24,000 nt of DNA from Anaerolineae bacterium (GTDB lineage: Bacteria; Chloroflexota; Anaerolineae; JAAYZQ01), in the NCBI GenBank assembly GCA_035341665.1, contig DAOQVR010000001.1, positions 483,275 through 507,274 on the forward strand, given 5' to 3'. The notes beneath the pieces were generated by a model. It did not search any database. It was not told the origin of the DNA and was given only the letters and a program-made list of their open reading frames with translations. Shown one piece after another: positions 1 to 15,711 of the stretch (its first letter is position 1; each line of letters begins with the position of its first letter). Both the position numbers and the translations under genes were made by a program.

Positions 1-625
1 TAGCCCCGTACCCAACGCTCGTGGGAACTGCGACAACCGGCCGGTCGACCAACCCGGCCACGACGCTTGCGAGAGCACCTTCCATACCCGCGACAACCAC
101 CAGCACGTTGGCTGCGTTAAGCTTGGGGCGGGCATCCAGGAGACGGTGAATGCCTGCGACACCGACGTCGTAGAGCCGCTCGACGGGGCTGCCCAGGGTC
201 TCCGCCGTGACTGCCGCCTCGTCTGCGACAGGGATGTCGGCTGTGCCGGCGCTCGCGACGAGCACCGTGCCAACGCCACTGCGCGGTGCGGGCCCTCCGA
301 CAACGATCATCCGCGCACTGGCGTAGTGAACAGCATCGGGGAAGGTCGCGAGCATTAGCTTCGCTACTTCTGGGCTGATGCGGCTGGCCATGACGCGGCC
401 CTCGGCCGCTAGCAGCCGCTCGACGATCCGCATGACCTGGTCAGAGGTCTTGCCCTGGCAGAAGACAACCTCCGGGAATCCAGTGCGCAGGCTGCGATGG
501 CTGTCCAGCCGCGCGAATCCGAGGTTCTCGTAAGGGAAAGAGCGCAGGCGCTCGAGGGCGTGCTCAACGCTCGATTCTCCCTTCTGGACCTCTTCCAGCA
601 GCGTACGCAGCCAGGACGACTCCAT
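1..625 (-). CDS. larB: LarB-like nickel-pincer cofactor biosynthesis carboxylase/hydrolase (PurE-related); C-terminus lies beyond the window
   Basis: The minus-strand frame is open from ATG 625-623 to the window edge. It is absent from the ORF track because there is no stop in the window. My translation is MESSWLRTLLEEVQKGESSVEHALERLRSFPYENLGFARLDSHRSLRTGFPEVVFCQGKT...VLVASAGTADIPVADEAAV...VVVAGMEGALASVVAGL...AVPTSVGYG, which is typical of LarB / AIR-carboxylase-related proteins. GGAGG lies 7 nt upstream, and the start is 16 nt after the larE stop. Confidence 0.85.
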   Translation of the reverse strand, partial: MESSWLRTLLEEVQKGESSVEHALERLRSFPYENLGFARLDSHRSLRTGFPEVVFCQGKTSDQVMRIVERLLAAEGRVMASRISPEVAKLMLATFPDAVHYASARMIVVGGPAPRSGVGTVLVASAGTADIPVADEAAVTAETLGSPVERLYDVGVAGIHRLLDARPKLNAANVLVVVAGMEGALASVVAGLVDRPVVAVPTSVGYGA

Positions 626-641
626 TCCGATACCTCCAGTG

Positions 642-1487
642 CTAGTGGCTCTCGGTGTGCGCGAGCACTTCGTTCAGACTCCCCATGCGGTATCCGGCCA
701 GATCGAGCGTGACATAAACATAACCCAGCTCACGCAGCAGTCGGACTGCCAAAGCGCGCGCCTTCGGCCGAGCTAGGCGGGCAATCTCATCCGGTGGGAT
801 CTCGATGCGAGCCAGGGGGAAGTGGTCACGCACGCGAAGCGGAATCGCCCCCCACTCCCCCTGAAGCCTTGCTTCGGCAGCCTCGACACGGGCCAGTCCT
901 TCGGCGGTGAGCGCTGTGTCGTAGGGGAAGCGGGTGGCCAGGCAGGGAGCTGCTGGACGGTCCCACGTCGGAAGGCCGCGTTGTCGAGAGAGCACGCGGA
1001 CCTCGCTCTTGGTTAGCCCGATCTCGGCCAGGGGGGCGCGGATACCCAGTTCGGCGCATGCCCGTCTGCCTGGGCGGTAATCGTGCTGGTCATCTGCGTT
1101 CTCGCCGGAGGTCACGTGCGCCAGGCCCTGTTGACGGCCAATGTCCAGCAAGGAATGGAAAAGGTCACGCTTGCAGTGGTAACAGCGATCGGGCCCGTTG
1201 GCAACTACGGCAGGGTCGGACAGGGAATCATACCGCACGACCAGCAGGCGTGCTCCCAGCGCTTCTGCTTGAGTGCGGGCGAGTGCCACCTCAGCGCGGG
1301 CTGTCAACGGTGAGTCCGCGGTAACGGCCAGGACACGGTCTGAGCCGAGCTCGTCCAGACTCACAGCCAGCAGGTAGGTGCTGTCAGTGCCTCCTGAATA
1401 GGCGACCAGCACACTGCCGAGCTCGGCGAGAGAGGCTCGCAAGGCTCTCTCTCTGGAGTCGAGGTCATGCTCGTTGTATCGCATCAT
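642..1487 (-). CDS. larE: LarE-like ATP-dependent sacrificial sulfur transferase (PP-loop ATP pyrophosphatase)
   Basis: 281-aa ORF with the PP-loop motif SGGTDS near the N-terminus. PCLATRF matches the LarE sacrificial-Cys region as I recall it. It sits directly upstream of larB on the same strand. Confidence 0.85.
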   Translation of the reverse strand: MMRYNEHDLDSRERALRASLAELGSVLVAYSGGTDSTYLLAVSLDELGSDRVLAVTADSPLTARAEVALARTQAEALGARLLVVRYDSLSDPAVVANGPDRCYHCKRDLFHSLLDIGRQQGLAHVTSGENADDQHDYRPGRRACAELGIRAPLAEIGLTKSEVRVLSRQRGLPTWDRPAAPCLATRFPYDTALTAEGLARVEAAEARLQGEWGAIPLRVRDHFPLARIEIPPDEIARLARPKARALAVRLLRELGYVYVTLDLAGYRMGSLNEVLAHTESH

Positions 1488-1508
1488 CTATCCAGGCTTC
1501 GCGGGTAG

Positions 1509-1537
1509 ATTCTAGCCGTGGTTGCAGTTCTCTCCAA
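1509..1537 (-). promoter_or_regulatory. Candidate sigma70-type promoter for larE-larB (TTGGAG-N17-TAGAAT on the minus strand)
   Basis: The -10 TAGAAT is the reverse complement of 1509-1514 and the -35 TTGGAG is the reverse complement of 1532-1537, with a 17-nt spacer. It would give a very short leader to ATG 1487. Hexamer match only. Confidence 0.3.
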
Positions 1538-1581
1538 GTCCGGCAACCCCGTTGCCTGCGCCTCGCACGGCCAAGATACGA

Positions 1582-1651
1582 ACATAACAAAGGGCATATC
1601 GGCACAAGAAGACATAACAACTGGAGCTCCCCCTGCGGTTAACATAAGCAA
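1582..1651. repeat. Three direct repeats (ACATAACAA, ACATAACAA, ACATAAGCAA) spaced exactly 30 bp apart in the phr-larE intergenic region
   Basis: The repeats start at 1582, 1612 and 1642. They sit in a locally AT-richer stretch between the photolyase stop (1673) and the larE start (1487). Confidence 0.6.
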
Positions 1652-1672
1652 CGGTAGCGTCGCGGGCTGAGA

Positions 1673-3184
1673 CTAGCCCGCAGATCGTGATCGTGCGTAG
1701 GCAGCCAACACACGTTCCCGTGCCCAGCCATGGTCGACGACGGGAAACGGGTAATCGTGCCCGACACGGCACCCTATCGCTGCCTGTAGGTCAGTGGGCA
1801 TCTCCCAAGGTGCGTGGAGGTAGCGCAATGGCACGTGGGCGAGCTCGGGAACCCAACTTCTCACGTACACGCCCTCGGGATCGTGCTTGCGGCCCTGGAG
1901 GATGGGATTGAAGATGCGGAAGTAGGGGGTAGCGTCGGTGCCTGTGCCAGCTGACCACTGCCAGCCGCCGTTGTTGGAGGATGGGTCAGCGTCGAGCAGG
2001 TGCTGCATGAACCATCGCTCACCCCAGCGCCAGTCGATGAGCAGGTCTTTCACCAGGAACGAGGCGACGATCATCCGTGCCCGGTTGTGCATCCAGCCCG
2101 TTTGCCAGAGCTGGCGCATCGCGGCGTCCACGATCGGATACCCTGTCTGTCCCGCGCACCAGGCTTCGAAGGCCGCCTCGTCATTCTCCCACGCAATGGC
2201 CTGGAGGTCGCGGCGAAAGCTGTGATCCGCCGTCTCGGGAAAGTGAGCCTGGATCGAGATGTAGAACTCGCGCCACACAAGCTCATTGAGCCAGGTATCC
2301 GCTCCATGGCGGTCCTGTTCGTCCGGCGCGTCGTCGGCCTTGCGCAGGGCGCCGACGATCACCTGCCTGGCGGAGAGCATTCCAAAGCGCAGGTAGGGTG
2401 ACAGCTGCGAGGTGCCCTCCATGTCCGGACGATCGCGGTTCTCGGCGTAGTGGTAGATGCCCAGGTCGTGGTCCGCCAGGAAGATGCCCAGCCGTCGCTG
2501 CGCCTCGGCTTCTCCGGGCACGAACAACGCATTGGGAGGAAGCTCGCGCTCGGCGTGCAGTGGCAGGCTCGCGACCTGCTGGGGAACGGGGGGCACCGAA
2601 GGCGGCTCTAGCAGGCCGCCAGGGACCGGCAGCGGACGGCTTTTCCAGGCGCGGAGGAAGGGCGTGAACACCGTGTAGGGAGTCCCATCGGCCTTGAGCA
2701 CTGCGTCGGGCGGGTGGACCGTCAGGCCCGCGACCAGGTGCAGGCGCAAAGCCGTGGCGACAGCGGCATCGCGGGACCGGGCGTAGGGCCACGGGTCTTC
2801 CTCGGCGAAGACAGCCGTGGCCCCGGTTTCACTTGCCAGCTTGGCGAGCTCCTCGGTTGGATTTCCCTGTAGGATGACGAGGCGGCTTCCTCGAGCGCGC
2901 AATTCGGCATCAAGAAGCCGCAGCCCACCAAACAAGAACGCGACACGCCTCCATGCGGCATCTCCTACCTGCTCGGACTTTAGGATCGTTGGATCCAGCA
3001 CGAAGACGGGGATGAGCTGATCGGCTGCTGCGATGGCCGCGTGCAGTGCTTGATTGTCGGCCAATCTCAAGTCGCGTCGGATCCACCAGATCGCAGTAGT
3101 CACTGGTGCATGCTCTGAGCTACCCGGTGTCCCATCTCGGGGAGGATGGCGTGTGCCAATCTGCCGGTGGCCTGCGCTACGCAA
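1673..3184 (-). CDS. phr: Deoxyribodipyrimidine photolyase, class I CPD type (FAD)
   Basis: The C-terminal half reads [85 protein letters not shown], almost colinear with E. coli Phr. The N-terminus [16 protein letters not shown] is the photolyase alpha/beta domain. ATG 3184 overlaps the upstream gene by 8 nt. GTG 3103, just before [11 protein letters not shown], is an alternative start. Confidence 0.9.
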
Positions 3185-4103
3185 CGGCTTCGCGTAGTGC
3201 TGGTTCGATCTCCGGGAAACGGAACTGGAATCCTTGCTCCAGGAGCCGCTTCGGCACAGCCTGCTGGCCTGTCAGGAGAAGATCGGCCACCTCACCGAAC
3301 GCAGCCCGCATGACGGCGCCGGGCAGGGGAAGCCATGAGGGTCGGTGTAGAACGCGGCCAAGCGCGCGCGAGAGCTCGGCATTCGTCACTGCCCGCGGCG
3401 CAGCAAGGTTGTACGCGCCTGAGGCAGCCGGGTTGTCGATGAGGAACAGGATGGCTCGCGCCTCGTCCTCGAGCTGAATCCAGGAAAGCCACTGCCGGCC
3501 GTTGCCAATGGGCCCGCCTGCGTAGAACCGGTGCTGGAGTAGCATCGGCCGGAGTGCTCCGCCTGTCTTGCTGAGCACGACGCCCGTGCGGATCACGGCG
3601 CGCCGGACGCCCAGTGCTTCAACCGGTGCGGTGGACGGTTCCCACTCTCTCGCGGCAAAGGCAGCCAGGAAGTCTTGGCCGGGGCTGCTGTCTTCTGTGA
3701 CGGGGTCGTCGGCGTGAGGGCCGTAGAAACCCACTCCGGAGGCCTGGATAACCACGCCAGGCTTCTGACTCGCCCGCTCGGTTGCTTCCACCACGGCCCG
3801 CCCCGCGTCCAGCCGGCTTTCGCGGATGAGCCGCTTCCTTGCAGCATTCCAGCGACTGGGGAGCAGCCCGTCCCCCGAGATGTTGGCACCGGCCAAGTTG
3901 ACGATGGCACCGGCCCCATCGGCCAGGTGCGCCCAGCCGTCGGCGGTGCGACCATCCCACTTCTCGGCACGGACCTCGCCTGCCAGCCCCGTTACTGCCT
4001 CGGGACGTCGGCTGAGCAGAACCACGTCGCGACCCGCAGCTGACAAGTGCGCCGAGAGCGCCCGTCCGATGAGCCCAGTCCCACCGGTGATGATCACTCG
4101 CAT
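3177..4103 (-). CDS. yfcH: YfcH-like NAD-binding epimerase family protein (SDR fold with a DUF1731-type C-terminus)
   Basis: Starts [16 protein letters not shown] (Rossmann GxxGxxG) and ends in [22 protein letters not shown] chose ATG 4103 because AGGAGG lies 7 nt upstream. The 25 extra codons in the ORF track (to 4178) lack homology. Confidence 0.8.
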
Positions 4104-4150
4104 GTTCTTACCTCCTGGCATGTGTCCTGCAGATGCGGCCGGTGCGCAGC

Positions 4151-5452
4151 CTAGCGGCCGATGCATCCACGCAGCCAATCGAGCGCCAACCCACCTTGTT
4201 GGTCGAGGTGTTTCTCAGCCGCGTGCAGATAGGCGAGGACCAGACCGGAGAACCTCGCCGAGGCGATCTCTGGCATGCCCAGTTCCTCCGTCAGGTCCCC
4301 GCACTCAAGGAGCGAGACGGCTCCAAGGGCCAGCGCGGCCTCGAGATGCTGGGAGACCTCGGTGCAGAAGCTGGTTGCCTGCGAGCGTCCAAGTCCGAGA
4401 GACGCCGAACTCCCGATAACCTCGGCCTCGATGGACAACCGGCGCTCCTGGAAGCGCACCCGTGCTACCCGAGCCTCCTCAGGAGTCGGCTCTGGGGTTG
4501 GAGCAACCCTCGAGCCGGAGAGCAGCGCATCCGCCGTGCGCAGGGCGTAGTCTATCCTCTCTCCGAGGAAGAACCCAGGAACCCTGTCGCGCAGCTTTGG
4601 ATGGCGGTTGAACACACCGCCCGCGAACGCGAAGGGAGCCAGGCCCTGAATCGTCTCGGCTCCCTCGACCAGAGTGGCGGCAGAGGGCAGGCGCTGCGCT
4701 GCCATGATGATCAGGCCGGGCCGTACGATGCTGACCGCTGTGTCCAACTGCTCCACTGGGACATCGGCACCCAGGTAGACCACGGGCCAGCCAAGGTGGC
4801 GCAGCAAGTAGGTCAACAACAGGAGCCCGAAAGTGTGGTGTTCGCCAGGCGGGCAGGCTGCCAAGACACGGTTGGCGCGGTTGGCAGGTGGACACGCCAC
4901 CAGCAACGCCTCCAATCGTCCGACGGCCAGCTCCGAGACAAAGTGCTCCTGCTGAACGGAGACCTCTCCCTGCCTCCAGAGTTCGCCCACCTCGCGCACC
5001 GCCCACTGGAGCATATCGAGGCACACGACATCGGGTCGGTAGAGGGCAAAGGCTTGTGCGGCAGCCTGGTCAGCTTTCCTCCGGTCGTACCTGAGGCAGG
5101 CAGCAAGCCACTGCTCGCGCATCGCCTCGAGAGTAGTGCCTGACGCGGGTGAATCGATGGCAGGACCGGCGGGCGAGACCCTCGCCCCTACAACCTCCAG
5201 AGGGTTGTGACCCTCAGCCTCGACTTGACGAAAGAGGGCGACGGCTCGGGCGATCGTCATGCCCTCGTGCTGCCGGGCCTCGAGCCAACGGAGAACATCG
5301 ATGTCGCGCTGCGTATAGAGCCGTTGGCCGCCGGCACTGCGGGTGGGGCAGGGTAGCCCGTATCGCCGCTCCCAGGCCCTCAGTGTGTCTGGTTTGAGGC
5401 CTGTCTGCAGGGCGACGGCTTTCAGGTTGAAGAGCGGGGCCTCTTCTGCCAC
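4151..5452 (-). CDS. carH: MerR-family, cobalamin-binding light-sensing transcriptional regulator (CarH/LitR type) with an extra ~120-aa C-terminal domain
   Basis: MerR HTH: LFNLKAVALQTGLKPDTLRAWERRYGLPCPTRSAGGQRLYTQRDI. A Wx9EH motif is present (WRQGEVSVQQEH). The B12 Rossmann motif GEHHTFG (ExHxxG) is followed by VVYLGADVP. The start is set at GTG 5452, 19 nt after the DUF1295 stop and preceded by GAGAGGAAAGG. The track's ATG 5575 would overlap the upstream gene by 104 nt. Confidence 0.8.
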   Translation of the reverse strand: MAEEAPLFNLKAVALQTGLKPDTLRAWERRYGLPCPTRSAGGQRLYTQRDIDVLRWLEARQHEGMTIARAVALFRQVEAEGHNPLEVVGARVSPAGPAIDSPASGTTLEAMREQWLAACLRYDRRKADQAAAQAFALYRPDVVCLDMLQWAVREVGELWRQGEVSVQQEHFVSELAVGRLEALLVACPPANRANRVLAACPPGEHHTFGLLLLTYLLRHLGWPVVYLGADVPVEQLDTAVSIVRPGLIIMAAQRLPSAATLVEGAETIQGLAPFAFAGGVFNRHPKLRDRVPGFFLGERIDYALRTADALLSGSRVAPTPEPTPEEARVARVRFQERRLSIEAEVIGSSASLGLGRSQATSFCTEVSQHLEAALALGAVSLLECGDLTEELGMPEIASARFSGLVLAYLHAAEKHLDQQGGLALDWLRGCIGR

Positions 5453-5471
5453 GCTAGCTGGCCCTTTCCTC

Positions 5472-6260
5472 TCAGCGCCGCTTCCTGGGAAACCAGGGGA
5501 TGAAGGCGCTGGTGCTCTGAACGTACTCGCGGTAGGCTGGCTTGGTGGTCGCGAGTGTCTTCTCGAGGAGGGCAACTCCCGAGACTCGCAGCAATAGGGC
5601 GGTCATGAGGATCGGGCTGAAGATGGTCCAAAAGCCACCGGCTGCCGAAGCGAAGAGATAGTAGGCCCACCACTGAGCCGAGTCGCCAAAGTAGTTGGGG
5701 TGACGGGTGTAGCGCCAGACGCCCCCGTCCAGGACTCGGCCCTTGTTGGCGGGGTTTGCTCGAAAGCGCGCAAGCTGAAGGTCGCCCACTGACTCGAAGA
5801 AGAACCCGATTGCCCAAAGGGGCAGGGCGATCCAGTCGAGGATCGTCAGGCGAGCTGCTTGGGACCCAATCTGGGCGGCGAGGAGCGGGGCTGAGATGAT
5901 CCACAGCAAGAGACCCTGCAACACGAACACCTTGAAGAAGCTCTTCCACCACCACTGAGAGCCTTCCTCCTCGCGCCACTTGCGGTAGCGAAAGTCCTCG
6001 CCCTTGCCCCAGTTTCGCCAAAGAAGATAGGCCGAGAGACGCAATCCCCATATCGTGACGAGAACCGCGACGAGCCACTTCCGCGCCGGGAACCCATCTG
6101 GTGTCAGGGCGAAGTAGAGCCAGTTCACGATGACAAAGCCTGTTCCCCAGAAGGGATCGACGATGCTCGAGTTTCGCAGGAGGAGACTGAGCACCCAGAG
6201 CAGGGCCATGAGGCCCATCACAACACCCAGACCTGTGAGATACACCTCGACAAAGCTCAC
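5472..6260 (-). CDS. DUF1295 family polytopic membrane protein (steroid 5-alpha-reductase / ICMT-like fold)
   Basis: Multi-TM ORF containing GLRLSAYLLWRNWGKGEDFRYRKWRE and RYTRHPNYFGDSAQWW, both characteristic of DUF1295. The GTG start overlaps the DegV stop (GTGA at 6257-6260). GGAGG lies upstream. Confidence 0.8.
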   Translation of the reverse strand: MSFVEVYLTGLGVVMGLMALLWVLSLLLRNSSIVDPFWGTGFVIVNWLYFALTPDGFPARKWLVAVLVTIWGLRLSAYLLWRNWGKGEDFRYRKWREEEGSQWWWKSFFKVFVLQGLLLWIISAPLLAAQIGSQAARLTILDWIALPLWAIGFFFESVGDLQLARFRANPANKGRVLDGGVWRYTRHPNYFGDSAQWWAYYLFASAAGGFWTIFSPILMTALLLRVSGVALLEKTLATTKPAYREYVQSTSAFIPWFPRKRR

Positions 6261-7135
6261 TTCACTGCCTCCATCTGATCGCTCCCCGGCGCTTGCCCTT
6301 TGGCTTCCACGACGACAAAGCCGGCAGCTCCCGGGCCGATGTGCGTCCCGATGACTGGTGTTACTTCCGCGACGAGCGGCTGCCCGCCGTTGGGAAAGAG
6401 GTGGGACGCCTCGCGCCAGTACGAGTCGAGCCTTTCGGGTGCGTGGGTGTGTACCAGCGCAAGTTGCTCAAACGGCGCGAGTCCGGAGATCATTTCCACT
6501 ACACGCGTCCTGGCGCCGCCGCGGGTGCGAGCACGTTCCATGCGGAATTCTCCGCCGTTCATTGTCAGGATGGGCTTGACCTGGAGTATGGCCCCCAGGC
6601 TGGATTGCAGGCGGCTGAGCCGCCCACTGCGCCGCAAGTACTCCAGTGTATCGAGCGCGGCGATACAGTGGGTGCGGGAAGCCTGGTCCTCGAGTGCTGC
6701 GAGGATCTCTGCGCGGGACCGGCCCGCAGCGGCTTGCTTGGCCGCTGTCAGGGCGAGCAGGCCTATGCCAAGTGTGAGGTTGCCCGAGTCGAACACGGTG
6801 ACCCGCACGCTGCGCATTTCTTGCGCAGCCAGGCGTGCCACGCCGACCATGGCGCTGAGCGCGCTGCCGATGTGGATCGAGATGATCTCTGTTGCTCCCG
6901 TATTGGCAAGCTCCTCGTAGACCTTTACGAACTGGCCGGGTCCAGGGACAGAGGTGGTGGGGTGCGCCCCGAAACTGGGGAGACCCTCGTAGAACTGCTC
7001 ATGGGTCATCTCGACTCCATCGAGATAGCTCTGTTGACCGATGTTGATGTATAGGGGGACTATCGTAATCCCATGAATGGAGGCCAGCTCCGCTGGCAGG
7101 TCGCAACTGGAGTCGGTCACAATTCGGATCGACAC
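6257..7135 (-). CDS. DegV family fatty-acid-binding protein (FakB-like)
   Basis: IRIVTDSSCDLP near the N-terminus, and the protein is DegV-like throughout. The start is set at GTG 7135, with AAAGAGGA 6 nt upstream. The 46 upstream codons in the track (to 7273) would overlap the heliorhodopsin gene. Confidence 0.85.
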   Translation of the reverse strand: MSIRIVTDSSCDLPAELASIHGITIVPLYINIGQQSYLDGVEMTHEQFYEGLPSFGAHPTTSVPGPGQFVKVYEELANTGATEIISIHIGSALSAMVGVARLAAQEMRSVRVTVFDSGNLTLGIGLLALTAAKQAAAGRSRAEILAALEDQASRTHCIAALDTLEYLRRSGRLSRLQSSLGAILQVKPILTMNGGEFRMERARTRGGARTRVVEMISGLAPFEQLALVHTHAPERLDSYWREASHLFPNGGQPLVAEVTPVIGTHIGPGAAGFVVVEAKGQAPGSDQMEAVK

Positions 7136-7182
7136 GCTATCCTCTTTCTGCCCGGGTTCCCGGTGCTCTGCGCGAACCTTCG

Positions 7183-7205
7183 CCTCGCCAGACGTCCTGG
7201 CGAGG
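7183..7205 (-). other. Perfect 9-bp stem-loop (CCTCGCCAG-5 nt-CTGGCGAGG) between the heliorhodopsin and degV genes
   Basis: The inverted repeat is visible at 7183-7191 and 7197-7205. No U-tract follows on the minus strand, so it is not a canonical intrinsic terminator. Confidence 0.3.
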
Positions 7206-7239
7206 GGAAAGGCGCAATCGCCGGTCAGGGATGTCGCCG

Positions 7240-8082
7240 CTAGGGCGCCAGCACGCCGGCAAAGACCTGCCAAGCCAGGAGAGTCTTGGCTACAAGGCTA
7301 AGGACGATGTACATGCGCTCGCCGAAGAGGTAGTCCTTCCACGGACCCACCTTCTTGTACTGCAGGTACATGTTCACGGCAAAGATGTTAAAGAAGACGA
7401 AGAGACTGGCGACGATCCCGTAGACAAAGTCGGGCGGCCCGCTGTTCGGCGTCGAGGCGGAGGCGATCGACCAGACAAAGTACACGACAATCACGATCCA
7501 TGGGACGATCCCGGCGAAGCAGCCATAGATGAACGAGGTCCAGTCTGTCTTCTTTGTGGTCTGATTGTGGAGCTCCATCAGCACGCCGAAGAGGTTCATG
7601 CTGGCATTCACGCCGAACATCGCGATCAGAGCACCCAGGTCTGACACGCCGGTGAGTAGTCCGATCAGCACAATCATGATGGAGGAGCTAAAGGCATACT
7701 CGTAGAATCTCGCGGGGTTCATGCCCTTTTTGAGGTGGGCCACATACCACTTGTAGCCAAACGAGGCGAGGCTGAAGTGGGCAATGGCTGAAATGAGCAG
7801 AAAGGCGCCCACTGCCGGGCCAAAGGCGAGCGAAAACGCATCCTTGAGAGTGGGCACCAGCTTCTGGGCAGCCGCGTCAAAGTTGAGAACGGTTACCGTG
7901 ACCCCATAGGTCTTGAGGTCGCCCAACACGAAGCTGAGAACGACCATCAGGACACCCTGCACCAGGTGTAGGAAGCCCATGATCAAGTTGAAGCGGCGCA
8001 GGCCCTGATACGTCTTCTCTGGAACGTCGGGAGCATTGGAGGCAACGGCGGCTTTCTTCGCGGCGACGGGTTTCTTTGTCAT
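7240..8082 (-). CDS. Heliorhodopsin (7-TM retinal protein with inverted topology)
   Basis: Colinear with heliorhodopsin 48C12 as I recall it. Matching blocks are FGVNASMNLFG, GCFAGIVPW, DFVYGIVASLFVFFNIFA and GERMYIVLSLVAKTLLAWQVFAG, the last carrying the Schiff-base Lys. The counterion Glu context FYEYAFSSSIM and both conserved His (GFLHLVQ, SAIAHF) are present. The basic N-terminus fits an N-in topology. AAGGAGAG precedes ATG 8082. Confidence 0.9.
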   Translation of the reverse strand: MTKKPVAAKKAAVASNAPDVPEKTYQGLRRFNLIMGFLHLVQGVLMVVLSFVLGDLKTYGVTVTVLNFDAAAQKLVPTLKDAFSLAFGPAVGAFLLISAIAHFSLASFGYKWYVAHLKKGMNPARFYEYAFSSSIMIVLIGLLTGVSDLGALIAMFGVNASMNLFGVLMELHNQTTKKTDWTSFIYGCFAGIVPWIVIVVYFVWSIASASTPNSGPPDFVYGIVASLFVFFNIFAVNMYLQYKKVGPWKDYLFGERMYIVLSLVAKTLLAWQVFAGVLAP

Positions 8083-8161
8083 TTCTCTCTCCTTAGGCTA
8101 TGTTCGGTTGGTGACCCCGTTGGGGCATTCAGGTGCTCTTGAGCTCTGCAAACTGAGCGCC

Positions 8162-8190
8162 ATTTTAGCACGCCGCCCAACTGTTGTCAA
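8162..8190 (-). promoter_or_regulatory. Near-consensus sigma70-type promoter facing the heliorhodopsin gene (TTGACA-N17-TAAAAT)
   Basis: On the minus strand, the -35 TTGACA is the reverse complement of 8185-8190 and the -10 TAAAAT is the reverse complement of 8162-8167, with a 17-nt spacer. This predicts a 5' UTR of about 70 nt to ATG 8082. Confidence 0.55.
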
Positions 8191-8257
8191 GGTATTGTGC
8201 GGAGTTCTTACGACTTTCTAATGCCCATGTTCGGTCGAATGGGGTGCCTGCCGCGAC

Positions 8258-9286
8258 TTGAGCTCCTCTACGTTGTGTGCTATGATTGCGACCGTGAGAG
8301 CTCTCAAGTGCGTGCTGATCCCGCTGCTGTCCATAGTGCTGGCCTTCGTCGTGGTGCCTCTGGTCATACCTGTGCCTCCGCTGGAGAGGACTGTCCCTGC
8401 CGAGGAGTTGGCGGACCCGGACAGCCGTTTCGTCGAGGTGAATGGCCTCCAGGTGCACTACAAGGTGCAGGGGGCGGGGGCTCCGGCTCTTGTGCTGCTC
8501 CACGGATTCGGAGCCAGTACCTTCTCTTTCGAAGCAGTGATGCCCTCGCTCGCCGAGCTCGGCACAACCATTGCTTTTGACCGGCCGGCATTTGGCCTTA
8601 CGGAGAGGCCGACCGTGGCCGAGTGGGGCGATCAGAACCCGTACACGATCGAAGCACAATCCGACCTGACTGTTGAGCTCCTGGAACGGCTGGGCTTGAC
8701 GGAGGCCGTGTTGGTGGGCCACTCTGCTGGCGGCTCCGTCGCCGTCGTGACTGCACTTCGCCATCCCGAAAGGGTGAAAGCCTTGGTCCTGGTGGGCGCA
8801 GCGGTCTACGAAGGTGGCACTCCTGGTTGGCTGGGCCCTCTGCTGCGAACCCCTCAGATGCGGCGGTTGGGCCCACTCATTGCACGCCGGTTCGCGCGGA
8901 CCGGGAGCGAGTTGCTCGTCCGCGCCTGGCACGACCCTTCGCGAATTTCGCCCGCGACGGCGGAGGGGTACGAGAAGCCTCTGCGGGCCCAAGGCTGGGA
9001 CAATGCGCTATGGGAGCTTGTCATGGCCAGTCAACCCCTGGAACTGGCAGACCGGCTTCGTGAGGTGCGCGTGCCCGTCCTTGTGCTCACGGGTGACTCT
9101 GACCGGATTGTGCCACCTGAGCAGAGTGCTCGCCTGGCAGCCGAGCTTGCCAATGCAAAACTGGTGACCATTGCGGACTGCGGGCACTTGCCCCAGGAAG
9201 AGCAACCAGAGGTATTCCTGGAGGCAGTTGCGGCGTTTCTGAAAGAACTTGGATTCCCAATCGCTACTGGAGGGACAGAACCATGA
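8258..9286 (+). CDS. Membrane-anchored alpha/beta-fold hydrolase
   Basis: N-terminal TM helix (ALKCVLIPLLSIVLAFVVVPLVIPV), oxyanion HGFGAS, nucleophile elbow GHSAGG, and GDSDRIV and CGHLPQEE for the acid and His. The track start at 8258 is TTG. ATG 8282 is an alternative. Confidence 0.85.
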   Translation: MSSSTLCAMIATVRALKCVLIPLLSIVLAFVVVPLVIPVPPLERTVPAEELADPDSRFVEVNGLQVHYKVQGAGAPALVLLHGFGASTFSFEAVMPSLAELGTTIAFDRPAFGLTERPTVAEWGDQNPYTIEAQSDLTVELLERLGLTEAVLVGHSAGGSVAVVTALRHPERVKALVLVGAAVYEGGTPGWLGPLLRTPQMRRLGPLIARRFARTGSELLVRAWHDPSRISPATAEGYEKPLRAQGWDNALWELVMASQPLELADRLREVRVPVLVLTGDSDRIVPPEQSARLAAELANAKLVTIADCGHLPQEEQPEVFLEAVAAFLKELGFPIATGGTEP

Positions 9287-9690
9287 CGGCAGGGTATCTC
9301 ATCAAGCTCTACCTGGCCACGCTGGTGGCATTCTTTGCAGTCGATCTCGTCTGGCTAGGCGTTGTCGCTCGGACCTTCTACCGCAAGTACCTGGGCTTCC
9401 TAATGGCCCCCAGCGTGAATTGGCCTGCAGCGCTCATCTTCTACCTGCTGTTCGTCTTGGGCATCTTGGTGTTTGCGGTTTTGCCAGGACTGGAAGCAGG
9501 CTCGCTGAATGCCACGATATGGCGTGCCGCGCTGTTCGGCCTGATCGCCTACGCCACCTACGACCTGACGAACCTGGCGACTCTGAAGGACTGGCCGCTG
9601 GTTGTGACCATCGTAGACCTGGCGTGGGGAACGACGGTGAGCGTTCTGGTTGGCCTGGCCGGTTACTTTGCCGGGAGGTGGCTGGGCTGA
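9283..9690 (+). CDS. DUF2177 family small membrane protein
   Basis: 135 aa with 4 predicted TM segments. LVAFFAVDLVWLGVVARTFYR and YATYDLTNLATLKDWP match DUF2177 as I recall it. ATGA overlaps the hydrolase stop (9283-9286). Confidence 0.7.
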   Translation: MTAGYLIKLYLATLVAFFAVDLVWLGVVARTFYRKYLGFLMAPSVNWPAALIFYLLFVLGILVFAVLPGLEAGSLNATIWRAALFGLIAYATYDLTNLATLKDWPLVVTIVDLAWGTTVSVLVGLAGYFAGRWLG

Positions 9691-9726
9691 CAGGGCCCCC
9701 TGTCGATGAGCCCCGACTGCGAAGTA

Positions 9727-11607
9727 TCAGGGGCCCGACGCATCACGCTCGTTGTGCTCCTCAACGTCGATGGCGCCGCGGTCCATGAGCACCTGACGCA
9801 GCTGCGCCAGACTGATACCGTAGTGCCGTGCTAGCTCCAGCGCGTAGCTGCGGCCCATAGGCTTGCTCCTGCTTACGCGGTAGCTGCGCCGCGCGGCCAT
9901 TTGGTCGGTACTGTGTTCTGCCGTCGCCAGGTCGATGTGCGACGAGACCAGGCTCACCACTCGGCTGTCACCTGCAGCCTCGGCATTGATAGCATCTACC
10001 TGCTCCGCCAGCTCGTGCAGGTGGGTGGCGAACACCACGCGTGCGCCCAGAGTACGCAAGGTAATCACCACGTCGCGGGACAGATACAGGCTCTCTCCGG
10101 CATGCGTGCCCGACAGCGACTCATTGAGCAAGATGAGACTGTGGCGGGTGGCCTGCTCGAAAATCCGACGAAGGCGCTGGGCCTCATCGCCAAAGCGCCC
10201 CGTGCCGCGCGCCAGTTCCTCCTCCGACGGAAAGTGGCTGAACACCCCATCCGCTGGGCTGATCCGGGCCCGGCTCCCGGGCACAAACAGACCGACCTGG
10301 GCCAGCATCTGCATGAGGCCGATCGCCTGGGTATAGGTCGTTTTGCCGCCGCGATTTGGCCCGGTCAAGATAACGATCCGGCCCTCATCATCAAGACTCA
10401 CAGTGTTCAGGACGATATGGTCCCCCTGGGTCACGGTGCCGCGATCAAGATGGTGCAGCGCCAGGTTGATGTTGTAGCCGTCGCGCACCTCGCAGACCCG
10501 CTCGGCTTCGCCGAGGATCTCGGGCAAGCAGACCGGAAGCCCGCTCTGCTGGAGCCGGCGGGCGAGACGTGCCGCCCCGGCGTAGAAGGCCAGCGCAGGG
10601 CGGATCCGAACCAACCAGCGCCGGTTCACGTGGATGTAGGCTTGCAGGGCCGCAGCGATCGGCTTTCCCACTTGCTCCATGATCCGTGATAGGTCCCGGA
10701 AGAGCGGTACCAGCATTGGGCTGGCCCGGCGCTGAGGCTGCCGGATGGTGGTGCCGCCCCCGATCATGGGCGTCGTGTGCAGCGGCATCACACTCCCGCG
10801 GCCGCTGTTGCCCAGCAGAAGCCGCAGCAACGGGGCTTCGGTGAACGGCTCATCGTTGAGTGACAGCAGCGTGGCTGCAACCGGTTGCAGATCCTGGTCG
10901 AGGTTGACCCCGATCGTGATGCTCGTCACGCCGCGAATACGGGCCAGCAGGGGTGGAAGCTCCCGCGCCAAGGTCTGAAAGCTGTCACGTGCTTCGATCT
11001 GGACCGCCCGGTCGCGCAGCACGCATAGCCCTGCCGACCTGGGCTGGTGCTTGGCCTCCGCAAAGATCCGAACCGTGGCCCTGATACAGTCGACGTAAGT
11101 CTCCAACTCCCCGAGCCACCACGCCACCTGGAACAGCTCTGGCATGTCGGGGTCCCCCATGCTGTAGACGTTCAGTTGGTCAAGCCTTGGCAGCAGCCCT
11201 TCAATGCCCTCAGCCAGTGCCTCGCTGCGGACCAAATCGCCGCAAATGGCCTGCCGGTAGCGAATCGCTTCTGGGTCTCTGCATAGGTCCAACAGCACGC
11301 GCCGGATTAGTTCCTGGTCCTCACGCTTGCCGCCGATAGCGAGTGCCTGAATCAGGGTCTCAAGCTCCAGGTCCTGAACGACTCGCTCTCCGAGCCCCAC
11401 CCCGCCAGCACCCTGGCCCGGAGGCCACAACAGGTCTAGGTCTTCGCCTTGCTCGACTTCATCCCTCACTGCCTGGCGCATCGCCTCGTCCGCTCCCTCG
11501 AGTTTGGTCGTTCGCCCGGCAGCAAGCCGGCGCACACCCAATTTGGTGCGCAGCTCCCTGAACTCCTTGGCCAGTTCCTGGCCCAACACCTCCATGCCTG
11601 GCTGCAT
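9727..11607 (-). CDS. MutS-family ATPase (domains III/V only; no mismatch-binding or Smr domain recognised)
   Basis: Walker A in LTGPNRGGKTTYTQAIG. A Walker B-like stretch LILLNESLSGT, followed by FATHLHEL. The C-terminus MGRSYALELARHYGIS is MutS-like. GAGGA lies 9 nt upstream of ATG 11607. Confidence 0.8.
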   Translation of the reverse strand: MQPGMEVLGQELAKEFRELRTKLGVRRLAAGRTTKLEGADEAMRQAVRDEVEQGEDLDLLWPPGQGAGGVGLGERVVQDLELETLIQALAIGGKREDQELIRRVLLDLCRDPEAIRYRQAICGDLVRSEALAEGIEGLLPRLDQLNVYSMGDPDMPELFQVAWWLGELETYVDCIRATVRIFAEAKHQPRSAGLCVLRDRAVQIEARDSFQTLARELPPLLARIRGVTSITIGVNLDQDLQPVAATLLSLNDEPFTEAPLLRLLLGNSGRGSVMPLHTTPMIGGGTTIRQPQRRASPMLVPLFRDLSRIMEQVGKPIAAALQAYIHVNRRWLVRIRPALAFYAGAARLARRLQQSGLPVCLPEILGEAERVCEVRDGYNINLALHHLDRGTVTQGDHIVLNTVSLDDEGRIVILTGPNRGGKTTYTQAIGLMQMLAQVGLFVPGSRARISPADGVFSHFPSEEELARGTGRFGDEAQRLRRIFEQATRHSLILLNESLSGTHAGESLYLSRDVVITLRTLGARVVFATHLHELAEQVDAINAEAAGDSRVVSLVSSHIDLATAEHSTDQMAARRSYRVSRSKPMGRSYALELARHYGISLAQLRQVLMDRGAIDVEEHNERDASGP

Positions 11608-11657
11608 TGGCAGATCCTCACCCCATCACGGCTCGCCGCACTGTGCCACTACGGCCG

Positions 11658-12302
11658 TCAAACATGATTTCGCAGCATCAGTTCCATGGGATACGGATTC
11701 AGATAGACCTGCTGCCACACCCACTCCGGCACGGAGTGCCGCCGCAGGTGATGCCTGAGAAGCGTAAGCGGCACGATCAGCGGCACCAGCTCGCTGCGGT
11801 AGTCCTCGATTAGGCCTAGTAGCTCTCGCTTGTCGTCGGCCGAGAGGTTCTTCTTGAGGTAGCCCATGAGGTGCTGGAGGACGTTGACGTGCTTGCGGCG
11901 GGTGCCCAGGAGCGCCAGGCCTTCCATGAAGAGCCGGCCGTACGTGGACGAGAGTTCCTCCCACGGGATGGTCCCCGCATTGGCCACCAGCCGGCCCAAT
12001 TGCGTGTAGTGCTTGGAGCTGTGGGCCATGAGGGTGAGCTTGTGCGCGGTGTGAAAGCGGACCAGCCCGCCGGGCGTCGGGTCGGACTTCGAGAGCTCGG
12101 TCCAGCGGTAGTAGGCAAAGATGCGCTCGACAAAGTTCTCGCGCAGCGGCAGGTCGTTCAGGCGCCCCTCCTCCTCCAACGGCAGGATCGGGAAGCGGTC
12201 GCGGGCGGCGCGGGCAAAGAGGCCGCTGCCGGTACGATCGGCCATGCCGTGCTGGTTGTAGACTTTGACCCGGAATAGCCCGGACGAAGGGGAATCCTTC
12301 TT
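11658..12302 (-). pseudogene. 5'-truncated paralogous copy (about 214 codons) of the YbgA-like gene at 14648-15673
   Basis: Colinear with the last ~214 codons of 14648-15673 at roughly 85-90% aa identity by eye. It lacks the N-terminal DUF523 part that carries the Cys residues. Homology stops abruptly at 12302. The ORF continues to a GTG at 12467 through 55 unrelated codons. ATG 12245 could yield a standalone DUF1722-like protein. Confidence 0.7.
12238..12302. repeat. 65-bp stretch identical to 15228-15292, at the truncation breakpoint of the ybgA-like fragment
   Basis: TCGGCCATGCCGTGCTGGTTGTAGACTTTGACCCGGAATAGCCCGGACGAAGGGGAATCCTTCTT is identical at both sites. The flanking homologous DNA differs at roughly 1 position in 7. 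Confidence 0.8.
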
Positions 12303-12459
12303 ATAAGAGTGGGCGCAATAGACACAACGGCTTGGCCCTGGCTGCGAGGATCTGCATTCAGAAACCGAACAATGGCGGGCGGGACGACTGGGCGCACGGC
12401 TATCCCCGGCCGCCCTACGACACGGCAACGTACTCCGTAGATGAATAGGACCTATTGTC

Positions 12460-13224
12460 CTACTCACTGGCCAATCCCATCAAGACGGGAACAAACGCAT
12501 CATTGAGCCGCCTGTAGCCCGCTGCAGTGAGGTGTAGCAGGTCCCGACTGAACTCGGATCGTGTGCTCCCAACGCCATTTGCCAGGATCGAGTAGGCATC
12601 CAAGATCAGGATGTCGTCTCCGCCGAGAGAGCGGATGAACGCACTGACTTCCTCGATAGCCACAGCGACGTCATCCGACCAATACAGCCTACGGTCCAGA
12701 GGCACTGGCCCAGTCGGAAAGATGGTGGTCAGAATTACCTTTGCTCCCGAGCCAGTGGCCTTTTCGGCGATCTGCCGAGTGTTCTCTTTGCAGTTGGCGA
12801 CGATAGCCTCTTTCTGATCAGGGAGAACAGGAATGGCCTTCAGATCGTTGATACCCACCTGAACTACGACCACATCAGGCATCAGTGGTTTGACGTGATA
12901 ATCGAAACGCAGGAGAGCTTGAGCAGAAGTCTCTGCGTAGATGCCACGATTGACGAACTCAAATTGATCTAGATCAGGTGGAGTCCAATCTGCCGCTCTG
13001 GAGTCACCAAAGAAAACCACCGTTTGCAGGCCGGGTCTGGCAAGATCTCGTTGATCGGGTGCGGTGCTGTAGTGGCTCAGCCCCAGGGGATCCAGCCGAG
13101 ATCCGTTCAGTTGCAGGTAGTACTGCATGCTCTGGTTGAAGAGTAAGTAGTTCAGCGAAATGGACCCTAGCAAGACGACTGTGAGTGCGGCAACCGCAAG
13201 TATGACTCGACGATCTGGTTTCAT
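12460..13224 (-). CDS. SGNH/GDSL-family hydrolase with an N-terminal signal anchor
   Basis: N-terminal TM helix (VILAVAALTVVLLGSISL). Block I FFGDSRA, block III VQVGINDL and block V DLLHLT (DxxH). Looks lower in GC than the flanks by eye. Confidence 0.8.
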   Translation of the reverse strand: MKPDRRVILAVAALTVVLLGSISLNYLLFNQSMQYYLQLNGSRLDPLGLSHYSTAPDQRDLARPGLQTVVFFGDSRAADWTPPDLDQFEFVNRGIYAETSAQALLRFDYHVKPLMPDVVVVQVGINDLKAIPVLPDQKEAIVANCKENTRQIAEKATGSGAKVILTTIFPTGPVPLDRRLYWSDDVAVAIEEVSAFIRSLGGDDILILDAYSILANGVGSTRSEFSRDLLHLTAAGYRRLNDAFVPVLMGLASE

Positions 13225-13315
13225 CTTTCATCAACCCGTTGAGTATTGCCATCTGCAGCGCAAGAACTGGCTATCTAGAAGTGCGATCGAAGAAGCTTCT
13301 CAAAGGCGCTCGCTC

Positions 13316-13528
13316 CTACACGTGATTCCTCAACATCAACTCCTTGAGGCAGGGGTTCAGATAGACCTGCTGCCACACCCACGCCGGTACCGGATTGCGC
13401 CGCAGGTGATGCTTCAGCAGCGTCAGTGGCACCACCAGCGGCACCAGCCCGTGCCGGTAAGCCTCGATCAGCCCCAATAGCTCCTGCTTGCCCTCGGCCG
13501 ATAGGTCTTTCTTCAGGTAGCCCAACAG
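13316..13528 (-). pseudogene. Short 3'-terminal fragment (about 70 codons) of a YbgA-like gene
   Basis: Encodes LLGYLKKDLSAEGKQELLGLIEAYRHGLVPLVVPLTLLKHHLRRNPVPAWVWQQVYLNPCLKELMLRNHV. This is about 80% identical to the C-terminus of 14648-15673 and ends at the equivalent stop codon. Upstream of 13528 the ORF (to 13750) has no homology and overlaps the 13539-13886 gene. Confidence 0.7.
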
Positions 13529-13538
13529 GGGGAGCGCC

Positions 13539-14018
13539 CTACTTGTGGCGATAGACGTCCATCGCGTTCCGCATTTCGAGATTCGGAGTGCCCAACTTGC
13601 CAAGGAGCTCGGCGAATTCGTCGTAAGAGAGATCCTCATGCACAGCGTTCGACTCAACCACAATGACAAACCACGTAGGGTTCGAGGCATCTGGCTTGGC
13701 AAAGATCGCGTCCTTGTCTGGGTAGCGTTCGCCAATGATGTACTTGTCATCCCAGCCTATCTTGACAACGCTGCCCTCGATCACTGTATGATTGCATGTT
13801 GCCTTGGGATCGTCGTAGCATGCGTGTTGTGCTCCATAGAGCCGCAGGCCACTCAGGATTGGCCGTCCGAGGGAGTATCCGCCCACGACTGCGATTGGCG
13901 TTTTCTCAACGTATACCGGGACGAGTTCAGCCGCAGGGCCTCAACAGGCCGATACAGTGATCAGGAGCAGAAACAATGCGAAGATCCGGGGACCTACTTT
14001 GCAGTTCAACAGCTGCAC
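13539..14018 (-). pseudogene. Small lipoprotein gene interrupted by an in-frame TGA directly after the lipobox Cys. The mature part resembles DUF3997-type small proteins (family call uncertain).
   Basis: GTG 14018 is preceded by TAAGGAGG, where the hicB stop is embedded in the SD. It encodes VQLLNCKVGPRIFALFLLLITVSAC, then TGA (13943-13941), then continues in the same frame into the 115-aa track ORF 13539-13886 (GGYSLGRPIL...IGWDDKYIIGERYPD...TWFVIVVESN). Confidence 0.55.
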
Positions 14019-14028
14019 CGTGGCCTCC

Positions 14029-14358
14029 TTACGACTGGCTCAGCTTTGCGCTCACGATCCGATTCAAGCTTACGCCACTTTCGGCAGCTTCCAGCGCCAG
14101 TTGACGATGGACTTCCGGTGGGATCCGTACCATGAACTTGCCGCTGTATTGTCGGATCGCGATTGGCTCGGGAACAGCTTCACCACTGGCCTCGAGATCA
14201 GCAACGACCTCAGCCACCACCCGACGAATCCCCTCAAGAGCCTTTTCTGGAGAAGAGGCCAGCCAACTGAGGCTGGCAAACTCGGCGCACAGGCCGACAT
14301 ACTCTCCATCTTCCTCGGACCACATCACGCGGTAGCCGTATCGATCATTCTTCAGCAT
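14029..14358 (-). CDS. hicB: HicB-family antitoxin
   Basis: 109 aa. The N-terminal HicB fold region is YRVMWSEEDGEYVGLCAEF..SWLASSPEKALEGI. The C-terminal RHH-like DNA-binding tail is FMVRIPPEVHRQLALEAAESGVSLNRIVSAKL. Overlaps hicA by 14 nt. Confidence 0.8.
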   Translation of the reverse strand: MLKNDRYGYRVMWSEEDGEYVGLCAEFASLSWLASSPEKALEGIRRVVAEVVADLEASGEAVPEPIAIRQYSGKFMVRIPPEVHRQLALEAAESGVSLNRIVSAKLSQS

Positions 14359-14605
14359 TGCCCTCTACCTTCAGGCGGTCAATCGCCTTCAGCACTTGCC
14401 TCACCTGGTATGTTTTTGCCATCCCCTCATGATCTTGGATATTGACTCGCGGATCTCCCTGCCAGGGTGTTTTGTAGATGCGGTGACTGCTCCCCTTGTA
14501 GCGCGCCTCACCAAAGTAGAAAGCGCAGACCCTGCAAAGATCTGCAAAACGCACCCCCTTGGGGTTGTGCCGCATCCTGGCGACCAGGTCGTCCACCTTG
14601 CTCAC
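14345..14605 (-). CDS. hicA: HicA-family mRNA-interferase toxin
   Basis: 86 aa with GSSHRIYK (HicA GSH motif). It is upstream of hicB, the usual order. GTG start. Confidence 0.8.
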   Translation of the reverse strand: MSKVDDLVARMRHNPKGVRFADLCRVCAFYFGEARYKGSSHRIYKTPWQGDPRVNIQDHEGMAKTYQVRQVLKAIDRLKVEGNAEE

Positions 14606-14613
14606 GAGAGCAA

Positions 14614-14631: not shown

Positions 14632-14647
14632 GTTTGTCAAGTGTGCC

Positions 14648-15673: not shown

Positions 15674-15711
15674 ATCGCGCGCCAGTCCTCCTTGGTTCCG
15701 CTCTCCGAACG

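Follow-up and report, generated by a model that had tools for sequence, protein, structure and literature searches.

Gene content of the locus

We analysed a stretch of 24,000 nucleotides (hereafter the window) from an Anaerolineae bacterium of the Chloroflexota (contig DAOQVR010000001.1 of assembly GCA_035341665.1, positions 483,275 to 507,274), with a GC content of about 0.62. Six genes, all on the minus strand, form a string that begins with heliorhodopsin and continues, in transcription order, with degV, DUF1295, carH, yfcH and phr. The string is probably an operon derepressed by light, under the control of its own CarH-type adenosylcobalamin photoreceptor. The genes and features on which this reading is built, and the two genes that diverge from the string, are the following.

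7240-8082, minus strand: heliorhodopsin, 280 aa (PF18761, E = 4.5e-97)
6257-7135, minus strand: DegV, 292 aa, GTG start (PF02645, E = 2.6e-74)
5472-6260, minus strand: DUF1295, 262 aa, GTG start (PF06966, E = 7.1e-73)
4151-5452, minus strand: CarH-type regulator ("long CarH"), 433 aa, start GTG 5452 (MerR_1, B12-binding_2 and B12-binding)
3177-4103, minus strand: YfcH, 308 aa, start ATG 4103 (Epimerase and DUF1731, TIGR01777)
1673-3103, minus strand: photolyase (phr), 476 aa, GTG start (PF00875 DNA_photolyase and PF03441 FAD_binding_7)
8282-9286, plus strand: membrane-anchored alpha/beta hydrolase (Pfam; public gene calls)
9283-9690, plus strand: DUF2177 (Pfam; public gene calls)
8162-8227, minus strand: head promoter and putative CarH operator (promoter scan; comparison with orthologous promoters)
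7170-7215, minus strand: GC-rich intercistronic hairpin without U tract, beginning 25 nt past the heliorhodopsin stop codon

An earlier note, made from the sequence alone, had assigned the six genes to these families, and Pfam and NCBIfam profile searches bore out every assignment; public gene calls on the same contig give matching lengths (280, 292, 262, 433, 308 and 476 aa). As that note had pointed out, the products span three classes of chromophore, namely retinal, adenosylcobalamin and FAD. Genes for carotenoids or retinal were absent from the larger open reading frames (ORFs) of the window, scanned with Pfam up to position 23,103, and from the public gene calls (1-18,082), again in agreement with the note. 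An Rfam scan of the whole window gave no family at gathering score, and no cobalamin riboswitch or other known RNA in the 5′ untranslated region (5′UTR) or the spacers.

The heliorhodopsin matches PF18761 over its full length (1-242 of 242) with 324.6 bits (cut-off 26.7), and the structure of TaHeR (6is6) with E = 6.5e-72. Absence of the Schiff-base Lys and the counterion had been named in the note as grounds for reducing the finding to chance adjacency. Both residues are present in the alignment with TaHeR, whose chain numbering is offset by +6: the counterion Glu is E128 in transmembrane helix 3 (aligned with E108), and the Schiff-base Lys is K266 in transmembrane helix 7 (aligned with K238). 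The ATG is preceded by an AAGGAG ribosome-binding site.

DegV scores 250.5 bits with PF02645 and 259.6 bits with TIGR00762 (cut-off 99.7), and misses the FakB1 equivalog NF038249 (128 bits, cut-off 350). The protein is predicted to be FakB-like, from a fatty-acid-binding family; no gene for the FakA (Dak2) kinase partner was found among the Pfam-scanned ORFs and public gene calls of the window. The DUF1295 product is a membrane protein related to steroid 5-alpha-reductase and PEMT, and YfcH, of an NAD-binding family, passes TIGR01777 (307.8 bits, cut-off 207). The best solved relatives of the photolyase are cyclobutane pyrimidine dimer (CPD) enzymes of class I (1tez and 1owl, 2e-103; 1dnp, 1e-92), and only 77 bits are obtained with the class II model TIGR00591. 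It misses the NCBIfam equivalog cut-offs (PRK10674, 402 against 506 bits; 8-HDF type, 434 against 885), and from these comparisons it appears to be a class-I-like CPD enzyme.

Tight packing of the string, which the note had taken as a sign of co-transcription, holds for three of the junctions. DegV and DUF1295 share a GTGA overlap (6260-6257), 19 nt separate DUF1295 from carH provided that carH starts at GTG 5452, and 47 nt separate carH from yfcH. It does not hold between heliorhodopsin and degV, where a gap of 104 nt contains the hairpin. An 8-nt overlap between yfcH and phr had also been suggested, from an ATG at 3184. The codon at 3184 is a TTG, the Pfam match begins ~30 residues later, and the public calls give 476 or 463 aa, so this start was rejected. 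The photolyase most likely starts at GTG 3103, where its N-terminus matches that of other photolyases, and a 73-nt gap follows yfcH. The string is presumably co-transcribed.

A putative CarH operator at the head promoter

In positions 1-10,000 of the window, the promoter scan found a single strong promoter-like site, upstream of heliorhodopsin. It matches 11 of 12 sigma-70 consensus positions, with a -35 box TTGACA (8190-8185), a 17-nt spacer, a -10 box TAAAAT (8167-8162) and a TG extension. The -35 box is enclosed in a perfect 11-bp repeat, TACCTTGACAA (8194-8184), preceded upstream by a degenerate repeat, ACTCCGCACAA (8205-8195), in which ACA is retained; two more conserved blocks in 11-bp phase lie at 8216-8206 and 8227-8217. 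CarH operators overlap the -35 or -10 box; in the published design an 11-bp unit, nnnnTnnACAn, is repeated in tandem three or four times, and one unit contains the -35 box (PMC9304148). At the same place as the window repeats, the orthologous promoters of two related loci (L001 and L002) carry two perfect tandem repeats, and between these loci and the window the repeat block is conserved while spacer and 5′UTR have diverged.

The distribution of such sites was recorded in 80 species-level loci around relatives of the window heliorhodopsin, nearly all from Anaerolineae/Chloroflexota, which were searched with the window proteins. Of 68 matches to TnnACA-N5-TnnACA, 15 lay no further than 250 nt upstream of heliorhodopsin's start, compared with ~0.6 per bin elsewhere. 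With a background of 1.3% of random 230-nt windows, a two-repeat site was present upstream of heliorhodopsin in 10 of the 80 loci (binomial p = 7e-8). Of 26 loci with carH, 10 had one within the 220 nt upstream of this gene (p = 4e-13), one of these 10 (L054) being outside the 220-nt interval, probably as an artefact of a truncated upstream region. The repeats always head the unit that holds heliorhodopsin, whether this unit begins with heliorhodopsin, begins with carH, or is a degV-DUF1295-heliorhodopsin unit divergent from carH. Nine head promoters, five in front of heliorhodopsin and four in front of degV, align with invariant CAA-N4-TTGACAA and GTG-TA and an extended -10 box. The promoter scan and these comparisons support the claim of the note that a conserved co-directional light-related unit stands behind one strong promoter. 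A CarH-type operator on the heliorhodopsin promoter, to which the regulator is predicted to bind, would give this light-response string a concrete regulatory mechanism.

The hydrolase and DUF2177 genes diverge from heliorhodopsin and share with it the operator-bearing intergenic region of 199 nt; a divergent arrangement is also found in L001, L085 and L086 (DUF2177). No convincing sigma-70 promoter was seen for the hydrolase gene, the best candidate in this region (TTGAGC-17-TATGAT with TG, 8258-8286) overlapping its ATG at 8282. Either the real start is GTG 8294, on a leaderless mRNA, or a weaker true promoter overlaps the CarH repeats.

The long CarH regulator

The domain order of the regulator, by Pfam, is a MerR helix-turn-helix (PF13411), a four-helix bundle (PF02607) and a Rossmann B12-binding domain (PF02310), and its best solved relative in sequence is the Thermus CarH, TtCarH (5c8d, E = 2.3e-31). 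A signature of light-responsive B12 domains has been defined as GxxW/EH/GxxH/GxxxP (PMC11796333). In the window protein we found G156xxW159, W159-x9-E169-H170, E204-H-H206-T-F-G (ExHxxG, with the axial His) and G228-A-D-V-P232 (GxxxP), all of them invariant across 30 homologues of 46-76% identity.

With 433 aa, the regulator is ~140 residues longer than the Thermus CarH, and the extension is kept family-wide. In the AF2 model (whole-model pLDDT 85.8) the C-terminal domain, residues ~325-432, is helical, its block-mean pLDDT values being ~69-96. Foldseek with the complete model gave TtCarH and the photocobilins 8j2w and 8j2y, the latter two with a target-normalised TM-score of 0.75 over ~340 columns and E ~3e-13. 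When the C-terminal domain was modelled alone, 47 of the top 50 Foldseek hits were phycobiliproteins or smURFP, including allophycocyanin and phycocyanin, with probabilities of 0.92-1.0 and weak E-values (0.09-0.5). A sequence profile of this domain alone retrieved no significant relative in the PDB, the link to phycobiliproteins and photocobilins coming from fold comparison only. A phycobiliprotein-like fold is the relationship that defines a photoglobin. In photocobilins, which sense light through B12, a globin-like domain that binds biliverdin forms the C-terminus (Zhang et al. 2024, PMC10979010), and an architecture of MerR helix-turn-helix, B12 domain and photoglobin was listed by Schneider et al. 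2021 (PMC8717448). Judging from its model, the regulator is best described as a DNA-binding, photocobilin-like "long CarH".

Whether a bilin is bound may differ between members. At the presumed position of the key bilin-binding Asp the family motif is AAL(A/S/T)LGD, and of 29 homologues 23 have Asp, 4 have Asn and 2 have Ser; the window protein has ALALGA, with Ala378. The equivalence of Ala378 with Asp270 of SasPcob and D49 of photoglobin was deduced from the C-x-x-D pattern, not from structural superposition. From these residues, a fourth chromophore is possible for the family and doubtful for the window copy.

A hairpin follows heliorhodopsin

The hairpin at 7215-7170 has a folding energy of -28.4 kcal/mol (z = -4.2), and none of 200 shuffled sequences was equally stable. 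The significance belongs to the local hairpin alone, as folding of the entire 116-nt spacer between heliorhodopsin and degV gave z = -1.45, not significant. All five operons of the window type (the window, L001, L002, L085 and L086) have a hairpin after heliorhodopsin, in the four relatives at the same position, with unrelated sequence and z down to -5.6. A function is favoured because the structure is kept and the sequence is not. The hairpin is likely to be a partial terminator or a stabiliser of the mRNA 3′ end, and in both cases it would lift the output of heliorhodopsin over that of the downstream genes.

The slot between heliorhodopsin and degV is occupied in two of the related operons. 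L086 has there a Staygreen gene (5853-6335; PF12638, Mg-dechelatase family), and L002 an ORF of 154 aa (10895-11359).

Conservation of the neighbourhood

Synteny counts among the 80 loci are lower bounds; many contigs are cut short. Within 10 kb of heliorhodopsin the following families were found:

CarH-like regulator: 26 of 80 loci
DegV: 23 of 80 loci
DUF1295: 22 of 80 loci
Photolyase: 17 of 80 loci
Alpha/beta hydrolase: 16 of 80 loci

Chance would give at most ~2% of loci, even for a family with five copies; with five copies per genome, the 26 loci with CarH correspond to p ~1e-23. The linkage persists through at least five gene orders:

Order 1: heliorhodopsin-degV-DUF1295-carH-yfcH-phr (window, L001, L002)
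Order 2: carH-heliorhodopsin-degV
Order 3: carH divergent from degV-DUF1295-heliorhodopsin
Order 4: heliorhodopsin-carH
Order 5: heliorhodopsin convergent with DUF1295-degV

The nearest species-level relative of the window heliorhodopsin is that of L001 (Chloroflexota), a locus collinear with the window over all nine genes; the heliorhodopsins are 84% identical and the CarH proteins only 55%. The recurrence in related genomes that the note had proposed to look for is thus observed, both in this collinear locus and in the families that recur across the survey.

The neighbourhood was also examined from the side of the regulator. All of seven long-CarH contigs have degV upstream of the regulator gene, next to it or with DUF1295 in between (one has only an 89-aa fragment of degV); six have yfcH directly downstream, and two contain heliorhodopsin. 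Scanning metagenomes for the long-CarH family then gave 80 loci of 39-60% identity. In these, yfcH directly follows the regulator gene in 22 of the 50 loci eligible for the count, degV or DUF1295 lies upstream of it in 13 of 51 eligible, photolyase occurs in 14, and heliorhodopsin in only 2 of the 80. Seen from the regulator, heliorhodopsin appears from gene order as a lineage-specific add-on at the operon head, not as the organising gene. The simplest reading is that an autoregulated long-CarH operon is widespread, its commonest members being yfcH, degV/DUF1295 and phr. In some Anaerolineae the heliorhodopsin gene would have been placed between the promoter of this operon and degV.

Two long-CarH operons without heliorhodopsin contain a further gene. 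In L087 an amine-oxidase/phytoene-desaturase-like flavoprotein (10296-11837) comes directly after yfcH, and in L090 a similar one (10709-12208) comes after yfcH and one small ORF. Their position 3′ of yfcH is a hint that the substrate of YfcH is a lipid or carotenoid-like.

Proposed regulation and alternative explanations

We propose that the string is an Anaerolineae operon derepressed by light through its own CarH-type adenosylcobalamin photoreceptor, a reading to which we give a probability of about 0.65. In the dark, the 433-aa regulator with bound adenosylcobalamin would sit on the 11-bp direct repeats overlapping the -35 box of the promoter at 8190-8162 and block RNA polymerase; the divergent promoter of the hydrolase and DUF2177 genes, in the same intergenic region, would probably be blocked too. 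Light would cleave the Co-C bond, the repressor oligomer would break up, and transcription would begin. The transcript would start with heliorhodopsin, and the hairpin would probably end or stabilise part of the transcripts, leaving more heliorhodopsin than downstream products. The genes further on, those for DegV, DUF1295, the regulator (which would act on its own expression), YfcH and the photolyase, would be expressed by read-through. Repression and derepression by the regulator are expected by analogy, photolyase operons controlled by LitR/CarH being an established precedent (PMC11417400). Heliorhodopsin may in addition be physically coupled to DegV, DUF1295, DUF2177 or the photolyase.

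Several observations weigh against this proposal. The regulator fails the NCBIfam CarH equivalog NF052513 (143.5 bits, cut-off 400), which places it in a distant CarH subfamily rather than among the equivalogs; it is a distant relative of CarH, and its DNA site is a predicted one. When the window alone was searched, the two-repeat CarH pattern gave 0 exact matches, and with one mismatch 5 were found for 6.8 expected, that is, no enrichment. The pattern in the window alone is indistinguishable from chance, and consequently the operator call rests on position and on the comparative data. The hairpin could be an efficient, full terminator, and the downstream genes would then be uncoupled. Heliorhodopsin transcripts of the actinobacterium Aurantimicrobium photophilum increase in darkness (PMC8591293), so that light induction of heliorhodopsin is not universal. 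Finally, from the hydrogenase-type NuoE/F genes at 19404-23103, the source lineage appears to be anaerobic, which sits oddly with a light regulon.

A wider version of the proposal can be put forward only tentatively, and we think it somewhat unlikely in full. Heliorhodopsin would be a cargo of a new class of dual-chromophore MerR repressors (adenosylcobalamin and bilin), the long CarH proteins or DNA-binding photocobilins, that run a widespread light regulon of yfcH, degV/DUF1295 and phr in Chloroflexota and beyond. After induction, and in those lineages that took it up, it would act as a partner of DegV/DUF1295/DUF2177 on membrane lipids, or of the class I photolyase.

One alternative, although we consider it rather unlikely, makes heliorhodopsin, DegV, DUF1295 and DUF2177 a machine for light-driven remodelling of membrane lipids, with regulator and photolyase as incidental passengers. 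No families are more specific to the surroundings of heliorhodopsin than DegV, DUF1295 and DUF2177, and lipids are bound in crystal structures of heliorhodopsin (Chazan et al. 2021). In the window all three lie within 2 kb of heliorhodopsin (DUF2177 begins 1.2 kb from it), and in many loci degV is directly 3′ of heliorhodopsin, at 15-37 nt. However, DegV/DUF1295 accompany a long CarH without heliorhodopsin in 5 of the 7 contigs, and the metagenomic long-CarH loci have degV/DUF1295 upstream in 13 of 51 cases, against heliorhodopsin in 2 of 80. Because the two families go with the long CarH when heliorhodopsin is missing, part of the heliorhodopsin-DegV association can be explained by a common light regulon. 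Moreover, no FakA kinase partner was seen among the scanned ORFs and public gene calls of the window.

Somewhat less probable still, though the main rival where the hairpin is concerned, is a monocistronic heliorhodopsin, whose transcript would end at the hairpin; degV-DUF1295-carH-yfcH-phr would be transcribed from an unrecognised internal promoter, and the adjacency would reflect shared light-related selection. The 104-nt gap with its very stable hairpin, kept in five of five operons, fits such an arrangement, as does the fact that degV has a head promoter of its own in relatives without heliorhodopsin. Yet that same head-promoter architecture is here found upstream of heliorhodopsin, as if heliorhodopsin had been slipped in between degV and its promoter. 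A U tract is missing from the hairpin. The heliorhodopsin-degV spacer has nothing like the head-promoter architecture, and between the hairpin and the degV start at GTG 7135 neither a promoter-like site nor an operator-like repeat was seen. If there were no read-through, carH would be left without a recognisable promoter.

It is quite improbable that the MerR/B12 protein is not a photoreceptor and acts instead as a sensor of B12 availability or redox state, or as a B12-independent, CarA-like repressor. Its score far under the curated CarH cut-off, and an additional C-terminal domain of putative function, would be compatible with this. On the other side, the Wx9EH, axial His, GxxW and GxxxP signatures are all kept and invariant in the family, in structure the protein comes closest to the photoreceptors CarH and photocobilin, and the operon cargo is light-related (photolyase, heliorhodopsin). 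Chance adjacency without functional meaning can be dismissed as extremely improbable, because L001 is fully collinear with a CarH of only 55% identity and the families recur in at least five arrangements across the 80 loci, with p ~1e-23 for CarH.

Relation to known systems

The note knew of no described system linking heliorhodopsin with DegV, DUF1295 and a CarH-type regulator, and had suggested light-triggered maintenance of membrane lipids. The claim of novelty does not stand, since the neighbourhood is published (Chazan et al. 2021; Shim et al. 2024). In Chazan et al. 2021 (bioRxiv 10.1101/2021.02.16.431466), the neighbours that best characterise heliorhodopsin are DegV and DUF2177; DUF1295 is the third co-occurring family, photolyase and cobalamin-binding proteins are also listed, and light-dependent remodelling of membrane lipids is already proposed. 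According to Shim et al. 2024 (PMC11109279), MerR regulators, photolyase, alpha/beta hydrolase and DUF2177 belong to the ten partners that frequently share an operon with heliorhodopsin. The window resembles the neighbourhoods of Chazan et al., which are mostly from Chloroflexi and Firmicutes, with DegV 104 nt downstream, then DUF1295, and DUF2177 on the divergent arm. That study, unlike the present analysis, is a statistical survey of families, without the CarH-type identity of the regulator, the operator on the heliorhodopsin promoter or the hairpin. A search of the accessible library found no paper that mentions heliorhodopsin together with CarH, nor a CarH operator on heliorhodopsin promoters. 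The gene neighbourhood is therefore already known, and the locus is a well-resolved example of heliorhodopsin neighbourhoods and CarH regulons. What is new is the -35 box within a CarH-type 11-bp repeat (two perfect repeats in orthologues), the hairpin in five of five operons, and the long CarH with a photoglobin-like domain.

With the CarH/LitR regulons (Thermus thermophilus, Bacillus megaterium, Myxococcales; Pseudomonas phrB-litR-rudS) the window shares the MerR domain, the four-helix bundle and the Rossmann B12 domain with Wx9EH and axial His, a regulator gene within its own operon, and a photolyase in the cargo. The putative operator, with its 11-bp TnnACA repeats over the -35 box, would be a further point in common. 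The window differs from these regulons in its cargo, which is heliorhodopsin with DegV, DUF1295 and YfcH rather than carotenoid genes, and in its regulator, which is longer by ~140 residues, ends in a globin-like domain and scores under the curated equivalog cut-off.

As in photocobilins and photoglobin-B12 proteins, a helical domain resembling phycobiliproteins comes after a B12 photoreceptor module. The photocobilins studied so far stand alone or are fused to a diguanylate cyclase, whereas the window regulator carries a DNA-binding domain; it also differs from them in having Ala378 at the inferred position of SasPcob Asp270. A heliorhodopsin and a CPD photolyase in one operon are found as well in Trichococcus flocculiformis, where TfHeR binds the photolyase of its operon with a Kd of 21.7 uM and boosts repair (Shim et al. 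2022, PMC9769723). That photolyase is a class II CPD enzyme, in a Firmicute operon with DUF2238; in the window, the photolyase is class-I-like and four genes away from heliorhodopsin, and a B12 regulator is part of the operon.

The published neighbourhood surveys of heliorhodopsin list families without regulatory logic. The locus and its relatives suggest a logic that can be tested, in which heliorhodopsin stands behind a promoter bearing recognition repeats for a B12 photoreceptor whose own gene is part of the operon. If this is true, heliorhodopsin would be made on light, alongside photolyase and lipid-related proteins, and part of its association with DegV would reflect a shared light regulon rather than a direct partnership. 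The combination of MerR, B12 and photoglobin domains is little studied, and no member has been characterised as a DNA-binding protein. The long-CarH operons offer natural operator/promoter pairs for testing the regulator, and possibly for optogenetic use; should the dual-chromophore reading of the long CarH be true, the function of heliorhodopsin would become accessible to experiment via a defined light-switchable operon.

Other features of the window

Downstream of the phr stop codon, three copies resembling AACATAACAA (TTGTTATGT on the coding strand) are found at 1581-1654 with an exact 30-nt spacing. They lie between this stop codon and a promoter-like site of the next gene (TGGAGA-16-TAGAAT, 1536-1509). 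These three TTATGT-containing repeats were considered as a second CarH operator and rejected, as their spacing is 30 and not 11 nt and TnnACA does not describe them. In L001 two of the three TTATGT cores are kept, at the same spacing, and the array may be the binding site of a regulator.

The gene directly downstream of phr (642-1487) is a LarE equivalog (TIGR00268, 290 bits, cut-off 150), and its position is kept in L001. An AIR-carboxylase-like gene of the LarB type comes next (1-625). LarE is an ATP-dependent sacrificial sulfur transferase, and LarE and LarB take part in maturation of the nickel-pincer cofactor.

On the other side of the string, between DUF2177 and the rudS fragments described below, the gene at 9727-11607 encodes a protein of 626 aa with only the MutS domain V ATPase and no mismatch-binding domains; the public gene calls on copies of the contig place it there too. 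There are three instances of the 3′ (DUF1722) part of rudS/ybgA, at 11662-11961, 13320-13619 and 14652-14951. The gene at 14648-15673 is complete (TudS desulfidase and DUF1722), and the other two copies are fragments with 84% and 61% DNA identity. The rudS product is an enzyme that removes the 4-thiouridine modification of tRNA and is frequent in light operons. The copies are separated by DNA of lower GC content (0.56-0.58) that holds a HicB antitoxin gene and a GDSL lipase gene. We read the arrangement as a likely product of serial insertions at the 3′ end of rudS, each supplying a replacement gene end.

Further on, a plus-strand cluster (16269-23103) encodes a protein with CBS and HATPase_c domains, a DRTGG-domain protein, a PHP phosphoesterase, a second HATPase_c protein, a small NuoE-like protein (read as such, with no Pfam hit) and a 1053-aa fusion of NuoF and GltD-like parts. 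We take this layout to be typical of the electron-bifurcating hydrogenase/NADH-oxidoreductase loci of anaerobes, a curious neighbour for a light regulon.

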